Positions 1 through 17,184 of a stretch of DNA of 18,350 nt are shown here, piece by piece. The notes beneath the pieces were generated by a model that worked only from the letters and a program-made list of their open reading frames with translations, had not been told where the DNA came from and did no database searches. The position numbers and the translations under genes are program-made. Source of the DNA: Bdellovibrionia bacterium (lineage in GTDB: Bacteria; Bdellovibrionota; UBA1018). The stretch lies in contig JBMSSC010000045.1 in NCBI GenBank assembly GCA_049424145.1, forward strand, positions 1-18,350. The letters are read 5' to 3'. How positions within the stretch are numbered: position 1 is the first letter of the stretch; every line of letters starts with the position of its first letter.

Positions 1-1926
1 TTGCAGAGGTTGAATCGGGTGAAGGACAAGACCCGATCGACTTACCGCTACTTAATGGCTCGCAATCCCCTGCGTCCGCGTCTTCAGTTGATCGCTGGCG
101 TGCTCCTGATGTTAGTTGGCCTGGGCTTCGAGCGCTTGCTTTGGCCGTGGGTGGGTTCGCACAACTTGATTGTTCTAATTCCCTGGGTCATCCTTGCAGC
201 TTGGTTTGTGGGGGGGAGTCTAGCGGGTTTGACCGCTTTGGGGGTGGGTCTTCTGGGATGGTTCATCATCTTTAGACCTCTTGTGGCTACAGAAGTCAGG
301 CCTGCTCACATGGAGTGGGCAGCTGTTGTGGCCTATCTGCTCACGGGGCTTGCTTTTTCTCTTCTGGGGAGTCAGTGGCTTGTGGGACTCACGGTTCGGG
401 CGGATCAACTGGAGCGACTTGAATATGCTGTGCTTGCTGCGAAAGTGGGGATTTGGGAATGGGACATCGTTCATGACACGATTCAGTGGGATGATCAGAT
501 GCTTCACCTTTACGGTTTGACCCGCGAGCAGTTTGGAGGAAATTATAGGGCTTGGGCTCAAGGCCTTCATCCGGAGGACGTGGAACGCTCCAATCAAGCC
601 ATTCAAGGCGCTCTTTTGGGCAAAGCAGCGTTTGACCTGAATTTCCGAGTGGTTTGGCCAGACGGAACGATTCGTCATTTGCATGCCAGCGCATTTGTGA
701 GGCGGGATGCACGGGGAAAACCCATTGTCATGTACGGACTCAATCGTGACATCACTGATGAGGTGCTCACCTTGTCCAAGCTTCATGAGGTGAACGCTTT
801 TTTTCAAGCTGCGATGGACCAAAGTCCTGTGGGTATTGTGATCGTGGACGCGCCCTCTGGTTTGATTCGATTTGCAAACGACGCAGCACTTGCCATCCGT
901 GGTGGGACCCGAAATCAGCTCGTAGAGGGCGTGGCCTTAGGTGAGTACCAAGCCTGGCAGACCGTATCGCTGGACGGAATTCCTTTGCCCAACGAGCAGA
1001 CTCCTTTGGCCCGATCCTTCTTGACAGGAGAAAAAATGAGTCAAGAGGTGGGGATGATCAATGCTCGGGGAGAGCTCCGGGTGCTTTTAACCAATACGGC
1101 TCCGATTCGTAGGCAGGATGGAACCATTGGAGCTGGAATTGCCGTTTTTTTTGATCACACGGAGCGCCATCAGCTGCTGGAGCAAATTCAGGCTGCACGG
1201 GAGTCGGCTGAGCGTGCTTTGGGAGCTAAGTCTCGATTTCTCGATATTGCAGCGCATGAACTCAGGACCCCCGTGACGGCCTTCTCTCTTTTACTTCAAA
1301 TCACTCAAAAGCGGCTTGCTGAGGGGTGTCCAGTCAGTGCCGACGTCCTCGTTCGGTTGCGTGCCCAGGTGGATCGGCTCTCCAGACTCGTGGTCGATCT
1401 TCTTGAGGTCTCGCGGCTGGACCGCGGAATGGTGATCCTCAAGAAGGAATCACGTGACCTTGGACAAATCTTAGGAGAGTGCCTTTCTAGTTTTGAGCTT
1501 CAGTATCCTGATCGGAAGTTCATGTTCCGGGGAAATCATCGGAGCATCGTTTGCAAGGTGGATCCTGTGAGAATTTATGAGGTGATTTCTAATCTGATCG
1601 ACAATGCTCTGAAGTACAGCCCAGCGTCTTCGCCGATTGAGATTGAGCTAGCGGTTCCCTCAAGTCACACGGTTCGGGTCTCCATTGGTGATCAGGGGCC
1701 TGGGATCCCAGCTGAGCGATGGCAAGCTCTTTTTCAGCCCTTTGAGCGCGGGAGCTCCGCAGGGGAGTCGGCGCATGCGGGTTTGGGCTTGGGACTTTAC
1801 ATTTGTAAAAAGATTATTGAACTTCATGAGGGAATCATTGGTCTTGAAAGCACCGTGGGGCAGGGGAGTACGTTTTTCTTTGAACTCCCAGTTGAAGCAG
1901 TCATTCCGGGCGCGGTCTCCCAATGA
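1..1926 (+). CDS. Membrane-bound PAS-domain sensor histidine kinase (DUF4118-like TM region, two PAS/PAC, HisKA, HATPase_c); start uncertain (window edge, or ATG at 55)
   Basis: About 4 hydrophobic helices (VILAAWFVGGSLAG, DUF4118-like); PAS_3 signature GIWEWDI...W...LHPEDVE...FRVVWPDGTIRHL...G.NRDIT; second PAS (QSPVGIVIVD...FFDHTER); H-box AAHELRTPV; N-box NLIDNALKYS; G1 DQGPGI; F FQPFER; G2 GLGLGLYI; G3 GQGSTFFF. Confidence 0.95.
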   Translation: MQRLNRVKDKTRSTYRYLMARNPLRPRLQLIAGVLLMLVGLGFERLLWPWVGSHNLIVLIPWVILAAWFVGGSLAGLTALGVGLLGWFIIFRPLVATEVRPAHMEWAAVVAYLLTGLAFSLLGSQWLVGLTVRADQLERLEYAVLAAKVGIWEWDIVHDTIQWDDQMLHLYGLTREQFGGNYRAWAQGLHPEDVERSNQAIQGALLGKAAFDLNFRVVWPDGTIRHLHASAFVRRDARGKPIVMYGLNRDITDEVLTLSKLHEVNAFFQAAMDQSPVGIVIVDAPSGLIRFANDAALAIRGGTRNQLVEGVALGEYQAWQTVSLDGIPLPNEQTPLARSFLTGEKMSQEVGMINARGELRVLLTNTAPIRRQDGTIGAGIAVFFDHTERHQLLEQIQAARESAERALGAKSRFLDIAAHELRTPVTAFSLLLQITQKRLAEGCPVSADVLVRLRAQVDRLSRLVVDLLEVSRLDRGMVILKKESRDLGQILGECLSSFELQYPDRKFMFRGNHRSIVCKVDPVRIYEVISNLIDNALKYSPASSPIEIELAVPSSHTVRVSIGDQGPGIPAERWQALFQPFERGSSAGESAHAGLGLGLYICKKIIELHEGIIGLESTVGQGSTFFFELPVEAVIPGAVSQ

Positions 1927-11003: not shown

Positions 11004-11282
11004 ATGGTAGATGCTCATCAAATCGGAGTCACGGTTTACACGATGCGTTTTTGTCCCTACTGTGATCGGGCAAAAAAACTGCTTTCCGATCGCAAGATTC
11101 CTTATCGAGAAATTCTCGTGGAGGAGGAGGATGATGCTCAGTGGGATGCATTGTTCCAGCGCTCGGGCATGCGCACGATGCCTCAGATCTTTGCCCACGA
11201 TCGATTGATTGGGGGCTACACGGAGCTGGCTCAGTTGGATCAAAAAGACGGATTGGCCTCAATTCGCATATCCTCAAGCTGA
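11004..11282 (+). CDS. grxC: Dithiol glutaredoxin (Grx3/GrxC-like)
   Basis: VYTMRFCPYCDRAKKLL, RTMPQIF (cis-Pro), IGGYTEL; AAGGA SD upstream. Confidence 0.92.
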   Translation: MVDAHQIGVTVYTMRFCPYCDRAKKLLSDRKIPYREILVEEEDDAQWDALFQRSGMRTMPQIFAHDRLIGGYTELAQLDQKDGLASIRISSS

Positions 11283-13075
11283 GTTTTTTCTCGTGCCCGG
11301 ATCTTCTCGCCTTCTGGGTGGGCGAGTGTGGGCAGGACGCTGTCCCGGGGAGGCGGTGAGGTTTGGTGGCCTAGGTCCTCCAATTGCTGAGCCGATATCC
11401 CCAGAGGAGGAAGGTGGGGGATTCTCTGGAACTGATGGGAGAGGAGTTTTTCTACAGTCGAGCGGCTCAGGGATTGAAGCAAGTGACTGGGGCAGCGGTA
11501 CCAGGTGCTGGCGTGGTAGTTCGATTTGAGCACCCAGGGAATCCAAGCGGTGGGGAGGAATCTTAAGAAACCCGAGGGCAGAAGCTCACATCCTTGTTCT
11601 TGCCAGAAGGGATGGGCTCGCACGGCGTGCAAGAGGATGCTTTGATCCGCTCGACAGTTCGGCTCTCTTTCGAGCCATTGAACGGACGAGTGCTGGAGTG
11701 AGGGGAGGTGAGTGGGGCTTTGCTGAAAAGAGAAGAGACCCACTGCGGGCTCAGGAACTTGCTTGGGGTCTGTAAAAGGGAGTAAAAGAGACTGAAAAGG
11801 GGAAAAAGGGGGGGACGTCAGCACAGCACAGGGGGGTGACTCGGATTTGGATTTTTGAAGGTGAGTGCCCAGTTCTCGGAAGGTGCCCTCTTTTTTTCCC
11901 AGATCCCCTTTTAAGTGATGCAGAAAAACAAAAGCATTGATGACGACGGTGAGAATCAATCCCTGACTGAGCAGCGTTCGGACTCTTTTGGAGCGGATCT
12001 TGGGATAAAGCAAAACACAGCCCGTGAATCCCGCCCAAAGCAGGAGTTTTTCAAGCGGGATCATGAAGCGCCCCTCTTTATGACCAATGAGGCTGTGTCC
12101 GATCGCATAAGGAAGAAGGCACCCAGCCCAAAGACAACCTCTTTTGAGGCCGTGAATGATTCCGATCCCACTTCCCACAAGCAGGGTGAGTCCCAGGGGA
12201 ATTAAGGCCCAGCTCGTCGTCCAATTCCAACGAAACAACTCTGTGTACTCGATGAGGGATTGACGCCCAAAAACCAATTGACTGGAGTGGGTCAAAAGAT
12301 TGTACTGAGCATACATCCAGAGGCTTTCCCATGGTCTTCCATAAACCTGGGCATCGGCCAGACCCAAGATGAGAACCCCAAACAATAGACCCAGAAGAAA
12401 ACGAGGCACTGAGGGCTTGTCGTTTGAGTCCACCCGTCTTAGTTTCCATGCCGAAACCAGAGGGAGCGCCACTAAGCTCACACTGAGCAAAGCAGAAGGG
12501 TATCGGAACGCTGCAATGGCTACGGTAAAAAAACCCGAGGCGATCCAAAACTGGCGCGTCATGCACCCCAAGGCGATCCAAAAGGCCACTTCCGAGAGGT
12601 GCTCTGCTCTGGGGCTCACCGAAGGATAAATTGTGAACCAGGGCAAGAGCAGGAGGGCCAAACCCCACTGCTTGACTCCTTGGGATTGGTTTTGAATGAG
12701 CGGGTCGTGATGCAAAAGTTGAATCCATCCCCAGAGGATGCCTAGGTCCAGGAGTCCACAAAGCGCGTTTACGCAAAAGATTCGTAGATCAATGGAGAGC
12801 GGATCCAGAGCGTAAGCCAGTTTCAAAGCTCCCGCCAGCAGGGAGGGCGCGGTTAAGTTTCTTAAATGAAGACCGATCTCTTGACTGTGGATCCCAAATC
12901 CATGCGCGAGAATCATGGCAGGCTCAAAGGTTTGGCACCATTCATCCAGATGAAACCAATGGGATTGGGTGAGGCTTGCCAGGAGTCGAACCAAAATGGC
13001 AAATCCCCATGCCATTTTTTCTGTAAAAAAAAGCCTTCGAGTGAAAAAGGAATTCAATTGAGGTGCCTGGGGCAT
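11240..13075 (-). CDS. Polytopic membrane glycosyltransferase, GT22 (PIG-B/Alg9-like mannosyltransferase, GT-C fold), with a Cys/Pro-rich C-terminal extracytoplasmic domain; start probably 13075 or 13015
   Basis: First loop HLDEWCQTFEPA...GFG...E...LRNL matches the PIG-B pattern PDEYWQSLEVA...GYG..TWEW...IRS; late loop HSLIGHKEGRFMIPL matches GT22 HKE.RF..P; D..VYG...YNL...FG.Q; ~10 hydrophobic segments. Confidence 0.8.
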   Translation of the reverse strand: MPQAPQLNSFFTRRLFFTEKMAWGFAILVRLLASLTQSHWFHLDEWCQTFEPAMILAHGFGIHSQEIGLHLRNLTAPSLLAGALKLAYALDPLSIDLRIFCVNALCGLLDLGILWGWIQLLHHDPLIQNQSQGVKQWGLALLLLPWFTIYPSVSPRAEHLSEVAFWIALGCMTRQFWIASGFFTVAIAAFRYPSALLSVSLVALPLVSAWKLRRVDSNDKPSVPRFLLGLLFGVLILGLADAQVYGRPWESLWMYAQYNLLTHSSQLVFGRQSLIEYTELFRWNWTTSWALIPLGLTLLVGSGIGIIHGLKRGCLWAGCLLPYAIGHSLIGHKEGRFMIPLEKLLLWAGFTGCVLLYPKIRSKRVRTLLSQGLILTVVINAFVFLHHLKGDLGKKEGTFRELGTHLQKSKSESPPCAVLTSPPFSPFQSLLLPFTDPKQVPEPAVGLFSFQQSPTHLPSLQHSSVQWLEREPNCRADQSILLHAVRAHPFWQEQGCELLPSGFLRFLPTAWIPWVLKSNYHASTWYRCPSHLLQSLSRSTVEKLLSHQFQRIPHLPPLGISAQQLEDLGHQTSPPPRDSVLPTLAHPEGEKIRAREKTQLEDMRIEANPSF

Positions 13076-13124
13076 GACCGCAGAATAAATCTTGCAAGAG
13101 GACGGGGCCAGGAGAATCTTCATC

Positions 13125-13718
13125 ATGCTTCAAACAAAAAATGACCTCTCAGAACTCGATCGCAGCCACCTTGTGGAGCTCCTCAATCAGCGTTTAGCGG
13201 ATACTCTGGATTTGGTTTATCATGCCAAGCAAGCCCATTGGAATGTTCGAGGGCCTCACTTTCGTTCCCTTCATAAACTGTTTGATGTCATTGCTGAGGG
13301 GATTTTAGAAGGAGTGGATTTGATGGCTGAAAGGCTCGTGCAGTTGGGCGGGATTGCTCAAGGAACTCTTCAGGCCGTAGTTCAGCGAACCTCTCTGTCG
13401 CCTTATCCTCTCCAGATCATTCATGAAAAAAATCACTTAGAAGCGCTCAGCTCTTCTCTGGCTCAGTGCGCTAAAAGCATGAGACAGTCCATTGATCATG
13501 CTCAGGATTGGAATGACCAGGATACGGCGGATCTTCTGGTTCAATTGTCCCAGAGTCTCGATAAGTTTTTGTGGATGGTGGAGTCTCACCTCTTTGAGCG
13601 CGAGGAAGAGCGACAGGAGCAAACTCAGGATCCAAAGCTTAGGGCGGGATTAGAAAGTCGACTTTTTCATTCTGATCTAAGCTCCGGTGCTTCGTCGGAG
13701 GGGAAAAAAACGAGCTGA
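13125..13718 (+). CDS. dps: DNA starvation/stationary-phase protection protein Dps with a ~40-aa C-terminal extension
   Basis: AKQAHWNVRGPHFRSLHKLFD, VDLMAERLVQLGG, DQDTADLL...LDKFLWMVESHL; AGGAGA SD 9 nt before ATG 13125. Confidence 0.95.
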   Translation: MLQTKNDLSELDRSHLVELLNQRLADTLDLVYHAKQAHWNVRGPHFRSLHKLFDVIAEGILEGVDLMAERLVQLGGIAQGTLQAVVQRTSLSPYPLQIIHEKNHLEALSSSLAQCAKSMRQSIDHAQDWNDQDTADLLVQLSQSLDKFLWMVESHLFEREEERQEQTQDPKLRAGLESRLFHSDLSSGASSEGKKTS

Positions 13719-13732
13719 GTGAGCCCCTAGGT

Positions 13733-14173
13733 CTAACGGATTTGGCTTTTTTTTCTCAAGCTAGCTACCTTTTTTCTGAGTCGGAGGAGTGAGGCTTCAA
13801 GCGCCTTTGGGTTAGGCTTGGACTTTTGAGCCAGCGCAATTAAGTGGGCGCACTCCTGGAGCAGGCTGCTGCTGCCGCGTGGAGTCTTGCTTTGAGCTTC
13901 AGGGGCTTGCTGGGAGGAGCGGGCGTGAGGATCGAAGGACCGATCCTGATTGGGCTGGGAGAGCGGGCCCGGATTGATTTGAATCTGTGTGAAATCTCCA
14001 TGCCCATGAATGGACCTTAAATCCTCGAGGCTGGAATAAAAACAGAGGCTAGGTTTTGAAGAAATCCATCGAAGAGCGCACCATCCATTGGTGAACTCCA
14101 CACCCTCTGCTACAATTCCGGTTCCGCTGACGCCTGAGGGGTCCTTTTTTCGATAAAAAATAAAGAGCTTCAT
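13733..14173 (-). CDS. Conserved hypothetical protein (SGVSGTG-x2-AEG...RW...HGHG domain plus helical tail); likely start ATG 14173
   Basis: Compact ~65-aa N-terminal domain MKLFIFYRKKDPSGVSGTGIVAEGVEFTNGWCALRW...LRSIHGHGDFTQI, which resembles a recalled family of small uncharacterised actinobacterial/phage proteins. Confidence 0.75.
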   Translation of the reverse strand: MKLFIFYRKKDPSGVSGTGIVAEGVEFTNGWCALRWISSKPSLCFYSSLEDLRSIHGHGDFTQIQINPGPLSQPNQDRSFDPHARSSQQAPEAQSKTPRGSSSLLQECAHLIALAQKSKPNPKALEASLLRLRKKVASLRKKSQIR

Positions 14174-14443
14174 AAGTCGCTTCAAGCAACGGGGGGGCCA
14201 ATCATGAAAAGAGATTTGAGAAAAAACAGAGGCGAGTTTCATTTTTTTAAGAGAACCAAGAGATCGTCTTGCAAATCCTTCAATCATCTAAGAGGATGGA
14301 AAAGAGGTAGTCAAAAGGGTGGCTCATGAACAATTTCTTGGGGTTTCAGTGCTGAGGGGTTTGCTGATGCTCCAAGGCAAGAGGTGTTGCAGAGGGAAGA
14401 CGACACGTCTTGCAAAATGGCTCCACGAGCAAAAGCAGGGGAA

Positions 14444-16696
14444 ATGGAAAACGAACAACTCAAAAGTGCTCCCAATCATCCGCATTTAAACCAGTTCATT
14501 AGTCAGCTGGAGGCTCCCGTGGGTGCTTCCGGGCGGTCTTTGTATCAGATTCTCTCGGAGTACTTGAGCTTAAAGGGGAGTCAGCCTGAGTTGGCTTGGG
14601 ATCTAGAGGATCTGCTAATTGCCGATGCCGCAAGTATCGATTTGGCTCAGAGGAAAGCCAATCAAGAACTGCTTGCTCAACTGCAGACTCTTAAAAAGCA
14701 GGCAGCCATGAAGCCCTCTGATCCCTCCTCTTCCGAGGGCAATCCGTGGAGATTTCTTGCTCACGCGGATCATCAGCCCCAGGACTTAGATCCCCTCTTA
14801 AGAACCATTCGGTTTGCTCAGATTCAAATTCACAAGTTTTGGATTGAGCTGCAATCCTGTCCTCTGTTTTTTAACTCCCTCAATCAGTCCTCGGTCAATC
14901 AGATTGAGGAGATCTTGCTTTGGATCCAGGCCAGCCCCAGTTGGAATGAGATCGCCTCTCAGAGTAGGCTTGTGCCTGCGCTGGTGCAGCCCAACTCCAG
15001 AAAAGTCCTCTTGGAGTTTATGCGGGATGTGCGCTGTGCTCAGGTGTTAAAAGACCAACTCAAAGCTCAGGTGGAAAACTACGAGGATCGCTCTTTGCTG
15101 GCTCAGGCCGTTGCTCTGGTTCAAAAGCATCAGTGCTCTGGCCTTGAAAAGCGGGATCTGGAAAAGCAAATTTACTCTGGAAATGTGAAGTTGGCCCAAG
15201 TGCAAGGGGTCTTCGACTTTTTCAAGAAGCTTCATGCCTACGGCGGGTTTCCAAAAGTCAGTACGTTTCAGGAAATGAAGCAGGTTTTCAAAGCCTTAAA
15301 GTGGATCCGAGAGATTCCGCAGGAGCTCAGGGCTTGGCGCAGACCTTTGGTCTTAGCCTCAGGTCAGGCCATTCGCCTTCAAAGCTGGGAGGAGAGAGCA
15401 AGGCCTATTCGAGACATGCGAAAAAGGCTCCATGCTCACTTCATCCTGGGGCGTATTTCCGATTCTGAAAAGCTCCGGGATCTTTCCGAAGCCTTGATCT
15501 CAGGCGGAGTGTTTCGGAAGTTTAAGGCAGGGTATAAAGAAGCTCAGCGCGATTACCTCGATCTTCTTTTGGATCCGGTGAACCCAAAAGGAGGAGCGCA
15601 TGAAACGCCCCTTCAAAAATCCGAGCGCCTGATTGAATGGGCCAATTACTTGGATCAACTCAAGGCCTTTGGCGAGAACTCCGATCTCAATGCCGTTTTT
15701 GGCTCCGCCTTTCAAGGCATTGATACCCCGTTTGATTCGGCCTTAAAGGCCAATACGTGGGCCAATCATTTAAGACAGGACCTACAGGCGAATCCCTTTG
15801 GAAAAGCATTGGTCGACTTCATTTGCGCCGCTCCGGAAGTGGATTTCCAAAAAGTCTTTGAAGTGGCCTGCAGTGCTGAGGCCCAGGAGATTGAATCTCA
15901 AATGGCCTCCTTGGATTTGCAAAATGCGACGTTGCAAAGTGCTATTTCTGAGTGGAGTGCTTACGAAGGCTTAAGACTTGCGGAACTCAGCGCTCTGTTG
16001 AGTGCACTGGAACAGTTGAAGCTGGCCTCAGGCCTTCCTCTGTCTTCTCTGTTTGAGTTGCATCAAATGAGTGAGGAGTGGGGCTTTTTAGAGTCTCGCA
16101 TGGAGGCTTGCTCGGAGCTTAAAATTTGGCTCAAAGGCTTTTATCAAGGTTCCAATACGGATATCTCCATCATTGAGCAGGGCTTAAGCTACGTGCGTTT
16201 TGTCGAGGAGGCACCCGTTCCTGAGACGATTAAGATTTCCTTCCTCTCGCTTCATGGTCCTCAGCGCTTTCATGAGAGTAAGGTTTTAGTGGCAGGTGTG
16301 ATTTCTTCGCTTCCGGCTTTAAAAGAGCACCTTCAAAAGTTGGAACACGCGACCTTAAATCAGGTTCTGCCCCTGGAGCGAGGGCCCTTGGTTCAGCTGA
16401 TGATCAAACTTCAAGAAGCGCTCAAGCAGCCTGCCTTGTTAGAGGGCTGCGTTGCTTATTTGAAGCTTGAGCGAGAAGCTCGGGCCCAGGGGTTAGGCGG
16501 AATTTTGGATTACTTTGAGGCCCATGTTCCCGCTTCAGTTCCTTGGGATGTGGCCTATCAACTGGCTTTAGATGCTTCAGTTCTCAAGTCCCAAATGACC
16601 GGTCCTCTGATGGACTCCTTGGGCGGAAGCTTGGGGGAGTCTCTGAGGAGAAGTCTGGGAACCTCCTTAGGTCTGAGTTCCGCAGCCAATCACTAA
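14444..16696 (+). CDS. Large helical protein (~750 aa) resembling the central insert of DUF4011/DUF3320 SF1 helicases, lacking catalytic motifs
   Basis: Long uninterrupted ORF with AGGGGA SD before ATG 14444; motifs LNQFISQL..P...SGRSLYQIL, NPWRFL, GGVFRKF...YKEA, two F/Y-QG-x-D/N-T repeats, and Y..LERE....GLGGIL...Y..AL...L; no Walker A/B seen. Confidence 0.75.
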   Translation: MENEQLKSAPNHPHLNQFISQLEAPVGASGRSLYQILSEYLSLKGSQPELAWDLEDLLIADAASIDLAQRKANQELLAQLQTLKKQAAMKPSDPSSSEGNPWRFLAHADHQPQDLDPLLRTIRFAQIQIHKFWIELQSCPLFFNSLNQSSVNQIEEILLWIQASPSWNEIASQSRLVPALVQPNSRKVLLEFMRDVRCAQVLKDQLKAQVENYEDRSLLAQAVALVQKHQCSGLEKRDLEKQIYSGNVKLAQVQGVFDFFKKLHAYGGFPKVSTFQEMKQVFKALKWIREIPQELRAWRRPLVLASGQAIRLQSWEERARPIRDMRKRLHAHFILGRISDSEKLRDLSEALISGGVFRKFKAGYKEAQRDYLDLLLDPVNPKGGAHETPLQKSERLIEWANYLDQLKAFGENSDLNAVFGSAFQGIDTPFDSALKANTWANHLRQDLQANPFGKALVDFICAAPEVDFQKVFEVACSAEAQEIESQMASLDLQNATLQSAISEWSAYEGLRLAELSALLSALEQLKLASGLPLSSLFELHQMSEEWGFLESRMEACSELKIWLKGFYQGSNTDISIIEQGLSYVRFVEEAPVPETIKISFLSLHGPQRFHESKVLVAGVISSLPALKEHLQKLEHATLNQVLPLERGPLVQLMIKLQEALKQPALLEGCVAYLKLEREARAQGLGGILDYFEAHVPASVPWDVAYQLALDASVLKSQMTGPLMDSLGGSLGESLRRSLGTSLGLSSAANH
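16616..16675 (+). repeat. Five tandem S-L-(G/R)-x tetrapeptide units at the C-terminus of the 750-aa protein
   Basis: SLGG-SLGE-SLRR-SLGT-SLGL, encoded by degenerate 12-nt units. Confidence 0.7.
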
Positions 16697-17184
16697 GCTA
16701 GGATGAAGAAAGGTTCCTCAGAGAGGGTCTTCTTCTTTGGGTCGGAAGCACCGAGTAAGCGGATATTTTTACAAAACAAGGAGAGCATTTTTTTGATGGC
16801 TCGTGGATCCGAGAAGGGTTTCCCCTCGCGAGCTTTTTCAAATAAGAGTAAAAGGCTATCGATGGATTCTTGGGATTCATCGACTTGTGCTAAACCCATG
16901 CTCCAGTCAGGCATGAAACGCTCACCTAGGCTCATCTCGGCTTGAGTGATGATCTGCGTGTGTCTTTCATCTTTTTGAATCCGCCGGTAGCAAGCTTGGA
17001 CCCGATTTTTTTCTCCTTCAAGGAACTGCAGAAAGTAACCGGTTCTTGCAGCAAGAAAACCTGTGATTTGATCTTTTTCGTTTCGTTCTCGAGCCTGACA
17101 TAAAATCTCATTTAAGAGCTTTTCAGTGACGGGGCTACGGGCTTGACTCGTATAAACAATCGCAAATAGGGGGTTTTTCATCAT
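16693..17184 (-). CDS. Stand-alone BLUF (blue-light sensing using flavin) domain protein
   Basis: IVYTSQA (Tyr), ILCQARERN...ITGFL, FLQFLEG (Gln), RIQKDERH, RFMPDWSMG (Trp/Met), followed by a two-helix cap; no output domain. Confidence 0.93.
   Translation of the reverse strand: MMKNPLFAIVYTSQARSPVTEKLLNEILCQARERNEKDQITGFLAARTGYFLQFLEGEKNRVQACYRRIQKDERHTQIITQAEMSLGERFMPDWSMGLAQVDESQESIDSLLLLFEKAREGKPFSDPRAIKKMLSLFCKNIRLLGASDPKKKTLSEEPFFILA

Follow-up and report, generated by a model that had tools for sequence, protein, structure and literature searches.

The 18,350-nucleotide stretch of Bdellovibrionia DNA analysed here (the window; contig JBMSSC010000045.1) carries an intact 750-aa open reading frame (ORF) that is almost certainly both a descendant of the ~700-residue helical insert of Hhe-type DUF4011 helicases and an independent gene. 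On the evidence of sequence comparison, the ORF and its relatives form a new protein family whose ancestry is known; it has no name and is called the arm family here for its predicted shape.

Homology to the Insert of Hhe-Type Helicases

A preliminary description of the window had reported a mostly helical frame without helicase or nuclease motifs. In agreement with it, the frame was open, the AlphaFold2 model contained helices only, and a motif search for GPPGTGKS, DEASQ, HYR, and QG.ER found none of them in the 750-aa protein. Pfam returned no match below E 0.06; DUF4011 (PF13195), AAA_11/AAA_12, MTES_1575/Vsr-like restriction endonuclease (REase), and DUF3320 were not detected, and no enzymatic domain was found by Pfam or the helicase motif search. 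Pfam scans of 38 family members gave nothing consistent, a PHROGs search of the protein gave no match, and the ESM Atlas gave no usable match.

The same description had equated the ORF with the insert of DUF4011 helicases, end to end, and had allowed for the outcome that no helicase profile would match it. The NCBIfam Hhe profile NF042953 did match, with ORF residues 13-697 aligned to profile positions 443-1149 of 1797 (E 2.8e-25, 88 bits), and the PADLOC profiles PDC-S37 and Hhe matched at E 2.5e-25 and 5.4e-5, respectively. The NCBIfam and PADLOC profiles were built without the window protein. Judged from these alignments, the homology of the ORF to the insert is far beyond chance. The cut-offs set for whole proteins were missed, the Hhe cut-off being 2000 bits against the 88 scored and the ProA cut-off 1500 bits, with no ProA match at E <= 0.01.

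When the ORF was compared by BLASTP with the full-length helicase P0043, the top-scoring long protein of the HMMER scan described below, residues 15-715 aligned colinearly to 485-1188 (22% identity, 6% gaps), a region between Walker A (388) and DEASQ (1308), as had been predicted for an insert. The stretches of P0043 flanking the insert aligned with IGHMBP2 (367-429 to 190-253 and 1250-1344 to 320-409), and the position between them is presumably domain 1C of Upf1-family maps. A sequence search of the PDB with the family profile gave no match. Word-indexed searches returned only three near-length proteins each and no longer forms; a full HMMER scan succeeded, with 126 matches. The best 42 (E <= 5e-27) were proteins of 290-805 aa without helicase motifs, and many proteins of ~1550-2090 aa, the parents, stood below them. 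Of these long matches, 11 were scanned with Pfam; DUF4011, AAA_11, and AAA_12 were present in all 11 and MTES_1575 in 10. A hidden Markov model (HMM) of the inserts of 46 parents gave the ORF an E value of 1e-110, with positions 4-701 of its 710 aligned; this value is inflated because the 46 parents were chosen by their similarity to the query.

The landmarks that had been listed for the insert were all found, in order, in the sequence and alignments: LN15-16, P25, G30, SLY32-34, NPW100-102, G355-F357-F360-Y364-A367, G..F.G.DT at 420-428 with a second, degenerate unit at 564-573, and a partial C-terminal landmark (Y672, GL683-684, L688). The departures were small, F standing for Y at 18 and C669 for W. 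The Hhe profile, the P0043 alignment, and the boundaries of the size classes described below thus bear out the identification of the ORF with the insert, ends included.

Distribution and Inheritance

The related-genome set comprised 101 metagenome-assembled genomes (MAGs), 56-97% complete: the window's own genome (G000, 95% complete), 60 others of family f1, and 40 of other families. The arm gene was present in 19 of them, namely G000 and 18 of the 60, at one locus each (at a contig edge in G015), and in 0 of the 40. Outside family f1, no stand-alone arm was found in a 401-genome sample of the phylum, where the only matches were three full-length frames of 1684-2117 aa; parents are rare in the phylum, occurring in 3 of 343 genomes outside the family. 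These frames, Hhe-type helicases of 1790, 2117, and 1684 aa (L068:6584-11953 (+) in G322, L069, and L070), belong to three other Bdellovibrionota families, and none was sister to the stand-alone clade in the tree. Relatives of the arm protein come from Bdellovibrionota MAGs. No arm copies were found in annotated phages or viral contigs, and a plasmid search returned only Hhe/AAA genes, in 29 Klebsiella records. The copy in G024 is split over two frames (G024:C55:6563-8636, L038) and its close relative P0039 reads through, which points to recent decay or an assembly error.

As shown by FastTree, 47 stand-alone rows, including some near-duplicates, lay on one side of a branch and 49 parent inserts on the other (support 1.00); IQ-TREE, with 23 of the 47 and 20 of the 49, gave the split an SH-aLRT value of 100. 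P0043, P0047, and P0066 were considered as sister parents, with a support of 0.98 in FastTree but only 54 in IQ-TREE, and for this reason no donor lineage is claimed. P0065 with P0131-P0134, and P0128, were rejected as independent stand-alone inserts; they appear to be remnants of parents that were broken or truncated. The former cluster (560-662 aa, on several contigs) starts mid-insert and its matching stops at the insert end; it is probably a broken Hhe-type gene.

The arm family is under purifying selection. The ratio of nonsynonymous to synonymous substitution rates (dN/dS) was 0.068 for G017/G054, the only unsaturated pair among the 14 closest; the other 13 were saturated at synonymous sites (pN 0.18-0.43 versus pS 0.78-0.87). 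In all 14 pairs, pN lay well below pS. Arm distances correlated with rpoB distances among 18 carriers, kin that are not independent (Spearman 0.59, permutation p 0.001). In G000, rpoB itself is split over two frames (G000:C3:43066-47132, L094), probably by a MAG assembly error. Relative to G000, G038 had both the closest arm copy (56% identity) and the closest flanking genes (median 73%, 4 genes). A single origin with mostly vertical inheritance is strongly indicated by the trees and gene order together. The survey of orthologues and of dN/dS that had been proposed for this gene therefore upheld the view of an independent, conserved protein and not a random fragment: it occurs in 19 of 101 genomes as a single clade under purifying selection, in sharply bounded size classes, with 21 of the 47 rows in the long class.

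Architecture of the Arm Protein

The AlphaFold2 model, built from 38 alignment rows, was a confident one (pLDDT 88.4, pTM 0.61), and segment 270-465, which contains the tip domain, reached pLDDT 94.5 and pTM 0.85 when modelled alone. Fold searches with the whole model against solved and viral folds returned generic helical bundles only, the best VIA match having a Z of 6.6. For the tip model the best match was the PARP3 helical domain (Z 6.4, rmsd 5.4, 117 residues aligned), again a generic bundle. The absence of a fold match does not show that the fold is new. Because the model ranges of the VIA bundle matches were nested (110..666, 183..565, 235..520, and 303..425), the protein is apparently an out-and-back arm of stacked or nested helical modules, and the symmetric truncation of the short class agrees with this. 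No transmembrane stretch was found in the protein (maximum hydropathy 1.08).

The long class comprises 21 of the 47 rows, all with a start at profile positions 3-12; 20 of these end at 701-710, and the remaining one is the leading part of the split copy. Another 22, the short class, extend from 62-117 to 615-674, and four look truncated. The short class has lost both outer ends together, and its outer module is predicted to have been shed as a unit.

Motifs common to the stand-alone family and the parents concentrate in the tip. There are 37 columns conserved in the family and not in the parents, and 17 of these fall in module 1, which with residues 95-170 and 581-665 accounts for 23% of the length. 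The outgoing half of the module holds 12 of the 37 (R120, R123, K131-F132-W133, E135, S138, F142, W160, and W167). The median net charge of the tip at 296-340 was +4 in the stand-alone family versus 0 in the parents. The tip helix may resemble the membrane-targeting helices of the MinD type, exposed basic-aromatic amphipathic helices that bind anionic lipid; the sequence pattern is present but attenuated relative to the parents, the tip window of the query having a moment of 0.64, outside the top 12 windows. A C-terminal His was seen in 11 of 24 long-class rows, often as FH or VH (window 16682-16693, L023, L024, L025, L026, L028, and L042), versus 43 of 1223 long genome frames. It is possibly a recognition motif, in part reflecting shared descent.

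Table 1: Features of the arm gene and its surroundings in the window (nucleotide positions; aa, residues of the 750-aa protein).
Feature	Position	Strand	Remarks
Stand-alone arm ORF	14444..16696	+	Intact 750-aa frame; homologous to the helical insert that Hhe/Prometheus/PDC-S37 helicases carry, presumably at the domain-1C position
Shine-Dalgarno (SD)-like AGGGG	14437..14441	+	G-rich; ends 2 nt before ATG; weak spacing
N-terminal half of outermost (helicase-proximal) module, aa 13-90	14480..14713	+	Missing in short class; W38 and R42, conserved in parents, lost
Outgoing half of module 1, aa 95-170	14726..14953	+	Shared PW motif; VIA ranges suggest pairing with ~605-666
Outgoing halves of modules 2 and 3, aa 171-295	14954..15328	+	Putative pairing with ~535-565 and ~501-520
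Tip domain, aa 296-450	15329..15793	+	Basic; W298/R299/W315/R318/P321/W399
Basic-aromatic tip helix G-G-x-F-R-x-F-x-x-x-Y-K/R-x-A, aa 354-375	15503..15568	+	Shared with parents
First G..F.G.DTxF unit, aa 420-430	15701..15733	+	Across 38 rows, G425 and F430 do not vary
Second, degenerate Y.G..TD unit, aa 564-574	16133..16165	+	Seen in alignments
Returning half of module 1, aa 581-665	16184..16438	+	Family-specific Y583 and GPQ605-607; R608 shared with parents
C-terminal half of outermost module, aa 666-720	16439..16603	+	Absent from short class
Divergent upstream neighbour, 184-aa frame	13733..14287	-	Matches phrog_7499, unknown function; without helicase remnant
Convergent BLUF-domain gene	16693..17184	-	Blue-light sensor; its end overlaps the ORF stop by 4 nt

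The Gene and Its Neighbourhood

The N-termini of homologues aligned with the start at 14444; in-frame starts farther upstream would give 759 aa (ATG 14417) or 770 aa (GTG 14384). The SD attributed to the gene was present but, lying so close to the ATG, is a weak one. A promoter scan found no sigma-70-like site upstream, and the terminator count was at the level of shuffled sequence. Codon use was typical for the genome (73rd percentile of 983 long frames).

Because the convergent BLUF gene overlaps the ORF stop, there is no space beside the ORF for a C-terminal helicase remnant, and with the divergent 184-aa frame on the other flank neither side can hold a helicase half. Residues 36-103 of this small phage-like neighbour gave the phrog_7499 match (E 1.8e-20); it was rejected as a partner of the arm protein, not being common to other family loci. 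Other neighbours in the window are ordinary by Pfam, namely a Dps/ferritin-like protein (13092-13718, +) and an Alg9-like mannosyltransferase (11240-13126, -).

Neighbourhoods vary across the family, yet gene order locally follows the gene tree. L141 retains the genus-g10 gene order at ~37% identity of the arm gene, a downstream glnS is common to L142 and L028, and fadB-fadA stands upstream in three genera. A PADLOC check of the neighbourhoods matched 5 of 89 neighbours (within ~3 genes) at 1e-10, and the identifiable ones were generic (RmuC and an E1/ThiF-like protein). Named neighbours were mostly housekeeping, with FadA, GlnRS, AhpC, MsrB, and TopoVI-A among the 45 scanned; TopoVI-A is an archaeal-type DNA topoisomerase VI subunit A near the family member in G047 (L034:6124-7287). 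No effector gene travels with the arm gene across the compared loci. This context favours a resident chromosomal protein rather than a defence-island gene. Stable presence does not exclude defence, because every Pseudomonas aeruginosa isolate examined in one study carries a DUF4011 gene (10.1101/2022.11.11.516204).

Search for a Helicase Partner

The arm protein had been suggested to partner a helicase encoded elsewhere, so that the two would make up a split defence system. A search for DUF4011, whose control was positive in 3 of 14, detected it in 0 of the 101 related genomes, the 95% complete G000 included; an insert-less DUF4011 helicase in the window's genome was thus not found. Among the 19 carriers, AAA_12 occurred in only two and MTES_1575 in only one. 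The G017 protein, which has both, carries its own ~600-aa insert. This 1636-aa Upf1-like helicase with an MTES_1575 nuclease (L145:257-5167 (-)) has no DUF4011 match, and with its different insert it represents another Hhe-like architecture. The two AAA_12 helicases of G019 (L146:2355-5789 (+), 1145 aa; L147:2305-5898 (+), 1198 aa) have long N-terminal regions and a short Walker A-B spacing; they are distant and without DUF4011 and MTES. HMMs of five non-insert segments of the parents found only generic P-loop noise in G000 (E >= 0.0036) and weak matches in 19 flanking loci (E >= 0.0067), and no helicase remnants were found in four more loci. Since no parent helicase was found in the carrier genomes, the arm likely works on its own.

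Possible Functions

The reading that we prefer, while giving it slightly less than an even chance, is that the arm, restricted to one lineage and kept without its parent helicase, acts as a non-catalytic, cytoplasmic, rod-shaped adaptor. With equal reserve we propose as its history that a Hhe-type helicase was broken up on one occasion in a lineage of Bdellovibrionota, its arm being domesticated as a free-standing modular tether with a new job. The predicted modular out-and-back rod would keep, in its basic-aromatic tip, an ancestral docking role on an anionic surface, either the inner membrane or nucleic acid. The newly conserved surface of module 1 (KFW131-133, S138, F142, and GPQ605-607) may bind a new host partner that replaced the lost helicase head, and within a resident process of the cell the arm would then tether this partner or keep it at a distance.

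Several observations weigh against an adaptor. Its role is inferred from anatomy, and the pairing of modules was read from alignment ranges, not coordinates. Part of the "newly conserved" signal stems from the shallower divergence of the family. In the parents the tip helix is more hydrophobic (80% versus 17% in the family at column 359 and 53% versus 9% at column 370), which weakens the membrane-anchor variant. The gene occurs patchily, in 18 of the 60 other genomes of the family, and only the absence from G059 has been traced, to a contig end; one copy, that of G024, is split. The gene tree and rpoB conflict in places: G039 and G057 belong to the same genus and their copies are not sisters, and G000, whose rpoB sequence is partial, changes its position between the two trees.

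The strongest competitor, though itself rather unlikely, is that the arm is still an immunity protein, a phage-sensing part that either passes a signal in trans to an effector of another kind or itself blocks some phage component. Its ancestry lies in anti-phage proteins, as the NCBIfam and PADLOC matches show; the insertion of Prometheus is called characteristic and all of its domains essential (PMC13700489, citing van den Berg 2024), and Hhe has phage triggers (10.1101/2024.10.10.617714). The patchy gene also evolves faster than its neighbours, at 56% against their median of 73% identity to G038. Against this, the few PADLOC matches among the neighbours are generic where identifiable, the named neighbours are housekeeping genes, no effector travels along, and inheritance is mostly vertical, at one locus per genome.

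Two further possibilities are improbable, and to a similar degree. A decoy or dominant-negative protein would soak up phage anti-Hhe proteins or poison an incoming Hhe or Prometheus by mimicry of its arm. Phages do carry anti-hhe genes (10.1101/2024.04.14.589459), the motifs shared with the parents concentrate in the tip, and DUF4011 was found in none of the 61 family genomes; this last absence is unsurprising where parents are so rare in the phylum (3 of 343 outside the family). Because the carrier genomes have no Hhe, a decoy has nothing to protect, and phages and viral contigs yielded no copy. Alternatively, the protein might assemble by itself into a filament or scaffold that needs no other partner. 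Its long, all-helical, modular rod, the lack of a catalytic motif, and the variation of length by whole modules would suit such a role, but one module bears a cluster of many conserved polar and aromatic residues, beyond the needs of a plain filament, and the distribution is patchy.

The split defence system, with an insert-less DUF4011 helicase-nuclease elsewhere, is largely refuted and has very little probability left. A two-gene Prometheus is known from one Asgard genome (PMC13700489), of which the arm is not an example; the long class retains the helicase-proximal module, and the genomes surveyed are incomplete MAGs. The search described above nevertheless turned up no suitable helicase in any carrier, the parent-conserved W38 and R42 are lost, and the short class has lost the helicase-proximal module entirely. 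A decaying pseudogene relic, the least probable explanation and one that the preliminary description had itself considered, has precedents in the broken parents found in databases and in the split G024 copy, but it is refuted by purifying selection (dN/dS 0.068). Open frames across 25-57% identity in most carriers, two sharply bounded size classes, and flanks free of helicase remnants in the 19 loci and four more also speak against it.

Significance and Comparison with Known Systems

The ~700-residue insert makes up ~40% of Hhe- and Prometheus-type proteins and has neither a Pfam model nor a solved structure, and no account of its function was found in the literature searched. Nor did that search, which left most subscription journals outside its scope, yield a description of a stand-alone insert. 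The arm family shows that the insert can be a protein by itself, and its two natural truncation classes mark module boundaries. It supplies small constructs for structural and binding work, making the role of the arm directly testable, and it is a clean example of a part of a defence gene kept under selection after all enzymes were lost. If the preferred adaptor reading is true, the family is a natural dissection of Hhe and Prometheus that would reveal the role of their unexplained insert; a part of an immune protein would now serve the cell as a resident adaptor or as a sensor without an effector.

Like the arms of SMC, Rad50, and SbcC, the parent insert would be a helical arm that runs out and back between Walker A and Walker B, and these proteins recur among the weak Foldseek rows at noise level (TM-score <= 0.16). 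In contrast to them, the arm appears to be built from short helical bundles in a row rather than from a continuous coiled coil, and the stand-alone protein is without an ABC-type ATPase head (no Pfam match). In Upf1-like helicases (IGHMBP2, 4b3f; Upf1/NAM7; Sen1) the insert takes the place between the two aligned IGHMBP2 stretches, presumably domain 1C; this comprises ~65 residues in IGHMBP2 versus ~800 in the parent, and searches by sequence and by fold gave no solved structure that matches the insert.

Prometheus has a characteristic insertion in its DNA2-like domain (PMC13700489). The family member P0006 matches ProA (NCBIfam NF058533) at E 1e-12, whereas the window protein itself stays above E 0.01 and the arm lacks all four enzymatic or known domains. 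Hhe (NF042953; PADLOC PDLC02194), which has been classed as SF1_Upf1 (10.1101/2024.02.29.582594), and PDC-S37 (PDLC05009) are single-gene systems with the order DUF4011, Upf1-like SF1 helicase, MTES_1575/Vsr REase, and in some cases DUF3320; further sources treat these families and Prometheus (PMC3710099; 10.1101/2024.10.26.620412). The arm protein is colinear with their whole insert and shares the PW, tip helix, and G..F.G.DT motifs. It differs in being without DUF4011, the RecA1/RecA2 motifs, the nuclease, and DUF3320, in having its own set of conserved residues, and in being family-restricted, mostly vertically inherited, and situated among housekeeping genes. With every enzymatic feature tested absent, the arm protein does not belong to Hhe, PDC-S37, or Prometheus, but it descends from these.

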